Source of the DNA: an uncultured Alphaproteobacteria bacterium
GTDB lineage: Bacteria > Pseudomonadota > Alphaproteobacteria > Rs-D84
NCBI GenBank assembly: GCA_944392565.1
Contig: CALXWX010000003.1
Span: forward strand, 2,008-66,007
Reading direction: 5' to 3'
DNA: 64,000 nt
Position numbers: made by a program. This document shows, one piece after another, positions 3,001 through 6,000 of this stretch (position 1 is the first letter of the stretch; the number at the start of each line of letters is the position of its first letter).

Positions 3001-6000
3001 TATTCCGCACCGCTGAAAATGAAAAGGTTGTGTCCGCAATTTCAATATTAAGTGATGAAGGCGAAGCCGCCGAAGTCGATGCCGAAATTGCAGAGCAAGA
3101 ATCAAATCAACAATAAAACAGGGGACCGGTATGGACAGTGAATATTTTGCATCGATAAATGAAGTGTCAAAGCGATTGTCTGTGCCGGCGCATACCCTGC
3201 GTTATTGGGAAAAGCAGTTCCCGGTGATTATTCGCCCAACAACGGGTGCCGGTGGGCGGCGATATTATCGCACCGAAACTGTTGACAGATTAATTATTAT
3301 ACGCGATTTATTGTATAAGCATGGTCTGACAATTGCGGGGGTAAAAAAGTTATTGCGTGATGGGAACTTTCCAACATCTGCGGCAGAATTTTTATCGTCT
3401 GTGAACGAACCCGGTGCCGGACAGACAGAACATATAACGCAATCGAATGCCGCCATCATGCCAGAAAAAACAATTGATAATGCCCAGGTTGATTTAGCAA
3501 TCAGTTTACTGGAACAGGCACGCGATATGCTGAAACCTGTTTAAAAACAATGCGCCGGATGGCGCATTATTTTTTATTTTTCATTTTGTTTTAACTGTTG
3601 CAATTGTCTGCGATGATAATTCATTAATGCGCTGTGATAATCGTGCCGCAAATTTTCCCATCCACGATTAAATCGTTGGTGCATTGGCAAATTGCGCAGT
3701 GAATCGACAATCATGCTGTCGCGCTGGACTTTTTCCAGTCTGGTTAATGCCTGGTTTAAATTTTCCGTGGCATAAATTAAAACTGGATTTTTATTCATAT
3801 GTGCATTGCATAATTCGTCACCAATGGAATCAACGCGTGCTGTCATTTTATCCAGTGTTTGGCATCTGGATAAAAATTCTTGTTTCGACATCATGTGTTC
3901 ACCATGAAATAACTTACGCGTTAATTTATCCAGTTTCTTTTTTTCAGCTAAATATTTTTTGTCTTTTTTCAGTGTGTCTTCACTGATTTGTGCTGCATGA
4001 TTTCGTGCGGCAATATAATCGTATGTTGCATTTTTAAATGCAATATGTGCATTTTCAATTTCGTCTGTATTGTGCGTTGGTTCTTTGTATCGTATAATAC
4101 CATTGATAACCAGTGCGGTAATAATCGATGCGGCGCACATAGATATCAGTATGTTTCTTGACAGCATAGACATATTAATCCCCTTTTTATTATTTAATAT
4201 CGATTATTATAATAGTACAAAAAATCAGACTGTCAATATATTGAGAATAAAAATTATGGCAGTCCCAACGGGAATCGAACCCGTGTTACCGGAATGAGAA
4301 TCCGATGTCCTGACCGCTAGACGATGGGACCTGTGCCATATATATTAACAATTATTTTATATGTTGCAAATAAAGATTAACTATTTTTGTCTGATGATGC
4401 GACCAAATTCTTCGGGTGACATATGCGCAACGGACGCAATTTTTGACAATGTATTCCCAGATGGCCAATGCGGTTTGCCATATTTAGACACTCGCTTGCT
4501 TTTATTAAATGCGGTCGGGTCCATCCCACATAATTTTGCCAGCCCTGAACAACTGACGCCCATTTTTTCCGCGATTTTATCAATTGCGTTCCATATGCCG
4601 ATATGTGTCATAATTCTCTCTTTTTGTTAAAATCCAGAATTGATTTCTAGATATGGTTGAATTATATCCTAAAATCCCGTATTTGTACAGGGGTAAAAAT
4701 TCCTAAATTAAATTTTGTTGAAATATTTGGAAAACTAAAAACACCCCAATTGGGTGTTTTTTATTTGGTTGGGGCGCACACGGGGGGATGGGGGTGTTCC
4801 CCCATTTCCATTTTGGGAAATCTATGATTTTCCGAAATGGTTACAAAACATTGATAATGTTTTGCGGCACAAATACGCAAGTCCATTTGTGCAATCCGTG
4901 CGAATAGCAAATAAAAAATACCCCTGTGGGGGTGTTTTTTATTTGGTTGGGGCGCACTCAATTCCCTCGCACGGCGCGTTGCGCCGGCTGCGGGGAAACC
5001 GTGACGATTTGACTGCGCGTGTGCTTGTCAAATCTACTTGTTTTCGAACCGGCAACCGTTGGTTGCGGGCTGCGAACCGTGACCGCGAACCAAAAATAAA
5101 AACGCCACACGGGCGTTTTAATTTTTGGTTGGGGCGCACGGATTCGAACCATGATAAAGAGAACCAAAATCTCTTGTCCTACCATTAGACGACACCCCAA
5201 AAACATGCTTGATTATAAATATCTTTTATATTTTTGCAATAATTAATTTTTTCACTTGTAAAAAAATATAATTTTTATTATTTTAGCACTTGCATTTTAA
5301 TTATTAAAATATATAATCATTCTGGTTTTTAATGATTAAATCGTTTGTGCCTTAACCAAAGGGGGCAATCATGGCGCGTAAAGAATTTATAAAATTACTA
5401 GAAGCGAACATATTAATCTTGGATAAACTATCTGATAAATTAAAGAAAGAACCGGTAATGTTATCAAAATATCCACGCCAGCAATTAAGTATTTTGGTGC
5501 GTTTGCATATGGGTGGACCGGCAAAATTAAAAGACATTGCGCGGCGTGAAATGGTAACGGCGCCCAATTTATGTGCGGCGTTTCGTAAACTGGAACGCGA
5601 TGGATTGGTCTTGCGCCAGATTGATGAATCAGATCGCCGCAATACATGGTATTCTGTAACAGATACCGGCAAACAAATTGCGTCCCAGGCAATGGATACG
5701 ATGCGCAGTGCAATTGAAAGACTGTTTTCAAAATTGTCGCGCGATGATGAATTTGCTTTAACGGGCGCATTAAAAACAATCAACAGTATTTTAACAAAGA
5801 TGGAGCTGAATAATGCATAGCATTAAATTTGCTGCGTTTGTAATATGTGCAGCAATTATGTCAACCAATGCATTTGCGATGGATTTATCATTGAATGATG
5901 CGGTTGAAAAAATATTATCGGAATCCCAAGATTTGAAAAAAGCGGCGGCAAATGTTAAAAAAGCCGAAGCGTCATTGGATGTCGCAAATTCAAATCGTTG

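Follow-up and report, generated by a model that had tools for sequence, protein, structure and literature searches.

Behind the tRNA-Gln gene of an uncultured Alphaproteobacteria bacterium (GTDB lineage Bacteria; Pseudomonadota; Alphaproteobacteria; Rs-D84) two structured modules, A and B, follow one another on the tRNA strand, and each of them ends with an exact copy of the tRNA 3′ end. The locus was studied in a stretch of 64,000 nucleotides (assembly GCA_944392565.1, contig CALXWX010000003.1, positions 2,008 to 66,007 of the forward strand), hereafter referred to as the window. We consider it fairly probable that this locus is an array of tRNA-linked repeats (TLRs), as they are called in Escherichia coli: the units would be structured RNAs made by read-through from the tRNA gene, and recombination at the repeated tRNA end would reshuffle them.

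The 3′ end of tRNA-Gln is present three times

The 15-mer TTGGTTGGGGCGCAC was found in exactly three copies in the window, at 4765-4779, 4943-4957 and 5125-5139, with core-to-core distances of 178 and 182 bp. No further match was detected in the 64 kb with up to two mismatches allowed, and three matches were reached in none of 100 shuffled sequences. Read on the tRNA strand, as GTGCGCCCCAACCAA, this core comprises the last 3 nt of the T stem, the 3′ strand of the acceptor stem, the discriminator, CCA and one trailer base. Similarity around the cores reaches 48 nt at 71–77% identity, hairpins included. After each core copy on the tRNA strand there is a terminator-like hairpin with a T run; the three hairpins (4737-4761, 4920-4933 and 5099-5119) are unlike in stem sequence and alike in layout. 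An initial annotation of the window had described the tRNA-Gln gene with two further units of tRNA end and terminator, the hairpins being different and analogous, and this description was borne out in all respects except the spacing, which had been put at about 175 bp.

On the tRNA strand the order of the array is tRNA, core, module A, module B and distal terminator (Table 1). The promoter-like site of tRNA-Gln (5212-5239) is the sole candidate for sense transcription through the array, and no promoter-like site was found within 4765-5124 on either strand. The tRNA-Gln gene itself is 100% identical across all four species groups compared below.

Table 1. Features of the tRNA-Gln array and other features of the window discussed in the text (open reading frame, ORF; helix-turn-helix, HTH)
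Feature	Position	Strand	Basis or remark
tRNA-Gln(TTG), CCA encoded	5126-5199	-	ARAGORN and Rfam, 57.7 bits
Promoter-like site of tRNA-Gln	5212-5239	-	TTGCAA, 16 nt, TATAAT; 10/12 matches
Core copy 1	5125-5139	-	GTGCGCCCCAACCAA on tRNA strand
Module A, 182 nt	4943-5124	-	inverted-repeat search, folding
Module A terminator, T_A	5099-5119	-	
Module A degenerate inverted copy of tRNA 3′ part	5071-5093	-	TTGGTTCGCGGTCACGGTTCGCA
Module A hairpins (three)	5052-5066, 5006-5034, 4964-4995	-	
Core copy 2, end of module A	4943-4957	-	
Module B, 178 nt	4765-4942	-	inverted-repeat search, folding
Module B terminator, T_B	4913-4940	-	
Module B degenerate inverted copy	4893-4911	-	TTTGCTATTCGCACGGATT
Module B hairpins (four)	4867-4892, 4843-4865, 4808-4840, 4788-4805	-	
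Core copy 3, end of module B	4765-4779	-	
Distal terminator, T_tail	4737-4761	-	
144-aa ORF	4754-5188	+	antisense; called length 144, 176, 82 or 88 aa by arrangement
76-aa XRE-like ORF	4381-4611	-	PF13443 (Cro/C1 HTH), E 0.003, 18.2 bits, cut-off 22
tRNA-Glu(CTC)	4257-4331	-	ARAGORN and Rfam
Empty site, tRNA-Glu 3′ end (19-mer)	4246-4264	-	GACTGCCATAATTTTTATT; duplicated around module C in other strains
RmuC recombination protein	11822-12694	-	PF02646, E 5.5e-56
ComEC-type competence protein	15273-17213	-	PF03772, E 4e-52
Truncated module R behind tRNA-Arg(CCT)	48210-48270	-	C/R covariance model, 24.9 bits, E 2e-4

Modules A and B share a plan and differ in sequence

Both modules follow the same plan on the tRNA strand: a terminator, an inverted copy of the tRNA T arm and acceptor 3′ strand, a series of hairpins and the exact core. 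In module A the inverted copy and the core form 30-nt arms with 83% complementarity. The inverted copy has two pairing options. It can pair with the upstream core, which makes of the terminator a palindrome with 30-nt arms, or with the downstream core, which closes the module. Compared with shuffled sequence, the fold energy had a z-score of −7.3 for B and −3.6 for A. Sequence comparison revealed no relation between the bodies of A and B, and neither of them carries an ORF. No additional tRNA or transfer-messenger RNA-like gene was found by ARAGORN on either strand of the modules, and Rfam searches that covered the region, the whole window and the related loci revealed no known RNA family besides tRNAs. 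The distal terminator, T_tail, is probably the original terminator of tRNA-Gln, because in every allele of the species it is the one that follows the last core and it has no inverted core behind it.

A separate observation concerns the second hairpin of module B (4843-4865; GCAAAACATTATCAATGTTTTGT), which is invariant, loop included, in all B copies of three species. It holds the perfect palindrome ACATT-ATC-AATGT, a candidate that could be a protein-binding site.

Units are gained, lost and reordered within the species

Contigs of the same species were retrieved by looking for exact matches to the XRE-like and MarR proteins encoded on either side of the array. Nine other contigs were recovered, and the arrays were read out in seven. 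Two carry A-B, two carry A alone, two carry B-A′ with an insert, and one carries A-B-A, a 182-bp exact duplication in a short-read assembly that could be an assembly artefact; the other arrangements stand independently of it. The two remaining contigs have an XRE-to-MarR spacing equal to that of the window and are presumed to carry A-B. In the B-A′ alleles a 1.6-kb insert comes next, and the usual distal terminator stands behind it. The 447-aa protein encoded by the insert was considered as a recombinase, and this was ruled out: it is a subtilase (PF00082, E 1.5e-11) with visible D/H/S motifs. In one of these contigs (L009, 3980-5323) degenerate cores, GTGTACACCACAG and GGTCACAACCAA, stand at the two ends of the insert.

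In all seven arrays the module junctions lie inside the core. The terminators stay with their bodies, T_A with A and T_B with B, and T_tail is always final. Because the terminator stays with the body and the junctions lie in the core, the exchangeable unit consists of terminator, inverted copy, hairpins and core. The comparison of related strains that the initial annotation had proposed thus revealed variable content, with both the number and the order of units differing (A-B, A-B-A, A, and B-A′ with a peptidase gene).

Arrays of sister species contain the same modules and gene-bearing inserts

Syntenic loci in three further species groups were found via MarR homologues with 82%, 77% and 64% identity, so that gene tables of about 50 related loci from four species groups were compared. 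The record names of the sister species indicate human gut metagenomes, Hadza and Nepali samples among them. Modules A and B recur in two of the three sister groups, in other combinations. The 82% group (P0016) has a single terminator without a module, and its allele represents the empty state. In the 77% group the alleles carry either B or a 477-bp GIY-YIG cassette, behind which come a structured element of ~95 nt and a truncated A. Alleles of the 64% group are A, A-B, B with a GIY-YIG cassette, a short A variant and an A/B fusion, and in further alleles the 5′ part of A is replaced by 1.7–2.7 kb with S8 peptidase, Mrr or DnaJ-like genes. All arrays of this group finish with an A- or B-type 3′ hairpin and a core, which is sometimes degenerate. 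Across the tRNA-Gln arrays compared, an allele holds zero to three units.

The S8 inserts are strain-specific in the tRNA-Gln arrays of two species, where they encode 447 and 400 aa. The one encoding the 400-aa subtilase-like protein (L044 and L045, ~1612-2815) lies between one exact and one degenerate core. The GIY-YIG cassette, present in the tRNA-Gln array of two sister species, has a length of 428–477 bp (L033 2647-2892, L034-L036, L039, L043). On either side of it stand direct copies of a hairpin element of ~95 nt (CCCTTCGCGTCTGTGACG...), and its end is the 3′ part of module A. The cassette encodes an 81-aa protein with a GIY-YIG domain only (PF01541, E 3e-14). This protein was considered as a candidate mobilising nuclease; it consists of the catalytic domain only, and few alleles carry the gene. 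The larger inserts hold cargo genes without mobility genes. Because strains vary in the number and order of units, and inserts in sister species are bracketed by repeated ends, the repeated tRNA 3′ end is a point at which recombination and insertion take place.

A second module family is associated with tRNA-Glu and tRNA-Arg

In the window the 3′ end of tRNA-Glu is an empty site. In four same-species contigs (L009 3247-3435, L011, L013 and L014) tRNA-Glu is followed by a 169-bp module, C, which sits between 19-nt direct repeats GACTGCCATAATTTTTATT. Module C is laid out as a hairpin, an inverted tRNA-Glu T arm, a GC-rich body and a diverged direct copy of the tRNA-Glu 3′ part. Together with the tRNA-Glu 3′ region it forms a palindrome with ~41-nt arms, in which the T arm is nearly identical, the trailer identical and the acceptor part diverged.

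Another module, R, is found in truncated form behind tRNA-Arg(CCT) of the window. The truncated copy reaches as far as the start codon of a membrane ORF that is cysteine-rich and 109 aa long, and gene spacing around it is uniform in all strains seen. A complete R was found in a related species (CALXMY010000001.1, uncultured alphaproteobacterium; L017 5616-5739). An inverted tRNA-Arg T arm stands at its start; the sequence at its end, ATTCCTGTTGGGGATACTAA, shares 19/20 positions with the 3′ end of tRNA-Arg. The bodies of C and R align well, while the closing stems, CGGGAA/TTCCCG in C versus CAGGAA/TTCCTG in R, each agree with the T stem of the module's own tRNA. With a covariance model built on the C/R body, the C of a sister species scored 112 bits, R 78 bits and the window copy 24.9 bits; there was no other match to the model in the window. 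Neither alignment nor the C/R covariance model linked A or B to C/R by homology. Of the four tRNA loci in the window, three carry such modules, here or in other strains. The fourth, tRNA-Trp (32726), has no repeat module and is followed by a predicted secE-nusG region.

The distribution of the modules was assessed by exact-pattern scans. The C/R motif was found in one other species among 185,579 species genomes. It had no match in the JGI (Joint Genome Institute) metagenomes, where the exact pattern is narrow and absence is weak evidence. A likewise narrow search with the B motif returned one contig of the same genus.

Conservation is higher in the modules than in the flanks

Compensatory changes preserve every hairpin of module B: in its alignment across species 64 pairs were predicted, 97.1% of the cells were paired and seven pairs had changed on both sides; controls slid by 1–3 columns gave 37–56% paired cells and no compensatory pairs. 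Module A has four compensatory pairs, one of them within the terminator, and the covariation counts of both modules come from essentially two lineages. Between the window and the 77% group, identity is 97.2% for B, 92.7% for the body of C and 84–86% for parts of A; for the flanks it is 76% in marR, 77% in oep and 72% in the spacer between marR and the tRNA. Because the modules are better conserved than the flanks, they are taken to be functional or recently exchanged, and they are not decaying. The simplest reading of the 97% identity of B across species would be lateral exchange.

Read-through and recombination at the tRNA end as a proposed explanation

In the explanation we favour, the modules, which lack a promoter of their own, would be transcribed from the tRNA-Gln promoter upon read-through of the terminator, as in E. 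coli RrB. By analogy with E. coli RrB and RtT, the repeated tRNA terminus would provide the module RNA with the 3′ processing signal of the tRNA. The 15-nt cores with the ~48-nt similar stretch around them would serve as crossover points at which modules are added, deleted, duplicated and reordered, and at which larger inserts are trapped. Unequal crossover or slippage could convert A-B to A-B-A-B, from which deletion would produce A-B-A or B-A. Whole alleles may be swapped between strains and species via the invariant tRNA gene and the conserved flanks, and gene conversion from the adjacent tRNA could keep the module ends matched to the host.

Several points weigh against this explanation. 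Transcription and processing of the modules in this host are inferred by analogy, and all three terminators look strong and bidirectional. A core of 15 nt is short for RecA-dependent crossover, and shorter than the 18–19 nt of E. coli TLRs. The identity of B at 97% across species is hard to explain without lateral movement, and the covariation has the narrow lineage base given above. On shared helices neither G.U-only nor A.C-only pairs predominate, and of the two consensus folds the antisense one has the lower energy, so that the modules could act as RNA on either strand or as DNA hairpins. Finally, the likeness to E. coli TLRs is one of layout and not of demonstrated homology: the Rfam model of the E. 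coli unit, RtT, did not detect A and B at E≤10, C at E≤5 or R at E≤1.

The modules could instead be non-autonomous integrative cassettes, excised as circles and reinserted at the 3′ end of tRNA-Gln by a recombinase encoded elsewhere, in the manner of integron cassettes or of cis-mobilisable elements that use an attachment (att) site at a tRNA end. We regard this as unlikely. Such cassettes would be expected to change order (A-B versus B-A′) and to be duplicated (A-B-A), each time with the junction in the core, yet unequal crossover between cores can yield every arrangement seen, and A-B-A may have arisen in the assembly of short metagenome reads. The GIY-YIG, S8, Mrr and DnaJ-like inserts end in an A-type 3′ hairpin and core, resembling cargo plus site; the big inserts, however, lie inside the A module and not between cores. 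The presence of the same modules at different positions in different species, the 97% identity of B across species with flanks at 72–77%, and the empty site in the P0016 group all agree with integration. On the other hand, the ends of C and R match two tRNAs, which a recombinase of fixed specificity leaves unexplained, and no candidate enzyme was found. The gene tables of the ~50 related loci contain no integrase, transposase or recombinase family, proteins without a Pfam family staying unassigned in this check. In the window, as the initial annotation had stated, no integrase was found: Pfam scans of 12 ORFs revealed no mobility family, the remaining ORFs being judged by eye from their first 60 residues.

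A broader and more doubtful idea is that TLRs in general are widespread cassettes, mobile and homing to stable-RNA genes at the 3′ end, and consist of a terminator, an optional cargo and a recombination module made of hairpin plus tRNA end. Insertion would be performed either by a recombinase encoded elsewhere or by RNA- or hairpin-templated copying of the target T arm in both orientations. If this were true, the tRNA end would be an integron-like platform without an adjacent integrase. The idea would also account for the TLRs of E. coli, for whose origin we know of no accepted account.

We find it very improbable that the array is a stack of terminators insulating downstream genes from tRNA-Gln, with the bodies as neutral spacers left by tandem duplication. 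Three good terminators do stand in series on the tRNA strand, and downstream of them the same strand holds the XRE-like ORF and tRNA-Glu, but the bodies of A and B are unrelated and so are not duplicates, they are structurally constrained and conserved across species, and one sister species has a single terminator.

A tRNA 3′ end present in direct repeats is the classic sign of att sites, and the initial annotation had read the extra tRNA ends as attL/attR scars of repeated island or prophage insertions with almost wholly deleted contents. The part of this proposal that held is a site of variable content, with presence/absence polymorphism and, in some strains, gene-bearing inserts at the same repeats; as an origin of the units the proposal has hardly any probability left, since both units are fixed at ~180 bp, intact in several species, structured with compensatory changes, better conserved than the flanking genes and each provided with a matching inverted copy of the tRNA end, since no integrase or phage remnants were found and phage-contig scans were negative, and since the same layout exists behind a 5S rRNA gene of E. 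coli, a class of genes that to our knowledge is not an island target. The phage scans consisted of exact-pattern searches of IMG/VR with the C/R, B and A motifs, which were empty or returned nine chance 18-mers without flanking similarity, and a phage attP origin was rejected.

Neighbouring genes and other repeats of the window

The 76-aa ORF downstream of the array had been annotated as an XRE/cI-like gene at the boundary of an island. The ORF is present, its HTH match is below the cut-off, and a boundary role did not emerge from our analysis; the ORF probably lies outside the repeat system. It is found in every contig recovered with the XRE query and in all but one truncated contig of the MarR query. 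It is missing in the sister species P0020, where the array runs directly to tRNA-Glu. The 144-aa plus-strand ORF, which the initial annotation took to be spurious, very probably is so: it runs antisense through the units and the tRNA, and its length shifts with the arrangement.

The window encodes a ComEC-type competence protein and the recombination protein RmuC (Table 1). Their presence is compatible with allele exchange by DNA uptake and homologous recombination, a route that may operate here, and is no proof of it. Genes similar to virB8, cagX/virB9 and trbI/virB10 (27765-32535, minus strand) adjoin tRNA-Trp, which suggests that they are part of a type IV secretion or conjugation system.

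A repeat of another kind is located in the intergenic region adjacent to mraZ (53950-54600). It consists of a 75-bp unit repeated in tandem (54270-54475; 2.7 copies, 98% identical) and lies between two direct repeats of ~110 bp (~54010-54125 and ~54480-54590). A stretch of the 75-bp unit, CCCGCAGGCGCAAGCCGAGGGAAT, resembles the region of the 3′ hairpin in module A. This repeat is crossed by an ORF (54085-54456) that is repetitive and spurious.

Comparison with known systems

As at att sites in tRNA genes, a duplicated tRNA 3′ end flanks the DNA, and the inserted copy restores the tRNA and brings a terminator; tandem arrays, strain-variable content and polymorphism junctions within the repeat are also common to both. 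The units described here differ in being ~180 bp long, non-coding, structured and conserved, in the lack of an integrase at ~50 loci, and in that the ends of one module family match different tRNAs.

Integron arrays likewise have a fixed anchor, units of variable number and order, an imperfect hairpin with a short core and some single-gene units. Here, unlike in integrons, most units have no ORF, the core is a tRNA end and a 15-nt direct repeat holds the junctions. Next to the anchor is marR with a resistance-nodulation-division (RND) efflux operon, and no intI is present there. Integron attC boxes were considered and rejected: GCCCCAAC and GTTCGCG, from the core and the inverted copy, do not fit RYYYAAC/GTTRRRY when inspected by eye.

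With MITEs (miniature inverted-repeat transposable elements), repetitive extragenic palindromes (REPs) and bacterial interspersed mosaic elements (BIMEs) the modules share small size, strong folding, absence of coding capacity and imperfect terminal inverted repeats. They differ from these elements in that within the window they are located only behind tRNA genes, show no target-site duplication beyond the core and carry a terminator along at one end.

The closest likeness is to the TLRs of E. coli, first described in 1978 (Egan & Landy 1978, Rudd 1999, as cited in PMC8144298). They include the RtT/rttR units of the tyrT-tyrV operon as well as rrA, rrB and rrF, which in rrn operons are located between the terminators T1 and T2. 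In E. coli there are 22 units at ten tRNA/rRNA loci, one to five per locus; the last 18–19 bp of a unit are identical to the 3′ end of the gene directly upstream, and no function is known (PMC8144298). For rrn-linked units, with RrB as the experimental case, the same paper reports read-through transcription past T1, processing near the repeat and binding of Hfq and CsrA in vitro; conservation is reported there for three rrn-linked units only, and within Enterobacteriales only (PMC8144298). Our literature search on bacterial TLRs found no other treatment, apart from one editorial mention of the term (PMC9245011).

The E. coli loci were retrieved for comparison. At tyrT-tyrV the 19-mer AATCCTTCCCCCACCACCA occurs six times, twice in the tyrT and tyrV genes and four times at the ends of repeat units, one of which lies between the genes (175 bp); the other three follow tyrV and are spaced at 178 bp. 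As controls, these four units were scored at 133–137 bits by the Rfam RtT model (RF00391, gathering threshold 45 bits), the consensus of which has a closing stem formed by GGGGAAGGAU with AUCCUUCCCC, that is, an inverted versus a direct copy of the tRNA 3′ part. One to nine copies of the tyrT-type unit per genome were found in 4,726 of 5,426 complete E. coli genomes. At rrnB the order is 5S, T1, body, copy of the 5S end with trailer, and T2. Run with filters off, the model of the C/R body matched all four E. coli units at E 0.4–10, in register and with the strand correct, and two of them were its best matches. Local alignment of R with one E. coli unit gave a z-score of 4.5, the other pairs being non-significant.

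Like E. coli TLRs, modules A, B, C and R are located directly behind a tRNA gene on the same strand. Their ends copy the 3′ end of the gene upstream over 15 nt in the window, 20 nt in the A variant of L045, 19 nt in C and 19/20 nt in R. Units of 178 and 182 bp in the window compare with ~150–180 bp in E. coli, at one to five per locus. The window units are bracketed by terminators, as the rrnB unit is by T1 and T2, and the closing stem of inverted and direct copy is common to the window modules and the RtT consensus. Copy number varies among strains in both, and both contain spurious-looking ORFs: tpr in E. coli, the 144-aa ORF here. By this layout the locus would be of the same kind as the E. 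coli TLRs, while falling outside RF00391 as a family.

There are also clear differences. The host is an uncultured gut alphaproteobacterium and not an enterobacterium. Two unrelated module types are interleaved in the window array, where E. coli has near-identical tandem copies; each window unit owns a terminator; and the window modules are common to several species and tied to gene-bearing inserts. The cassette-like behaviour seen here is thus richer than that described for the E. coli class.

The locus therefore presents the E. coli TLR layout in a distant gut bacterium together with a natural comparative series: two module types, gain, loss and reordering at the level of strains, near-identical modules despite ~25% divergence of the flanks, and arms that track the host tRNA. 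With this series three questions become testable: whether TLRs are RNAs or modules for recombination of DNA, what makes their ends agree with the host gene, and whether they are mobile. The comparison has a practical side as well, since gene callers set spurious ORFs of 82–176 aa on such arrays, and programs that search for att sites would misread them as island boundaries.

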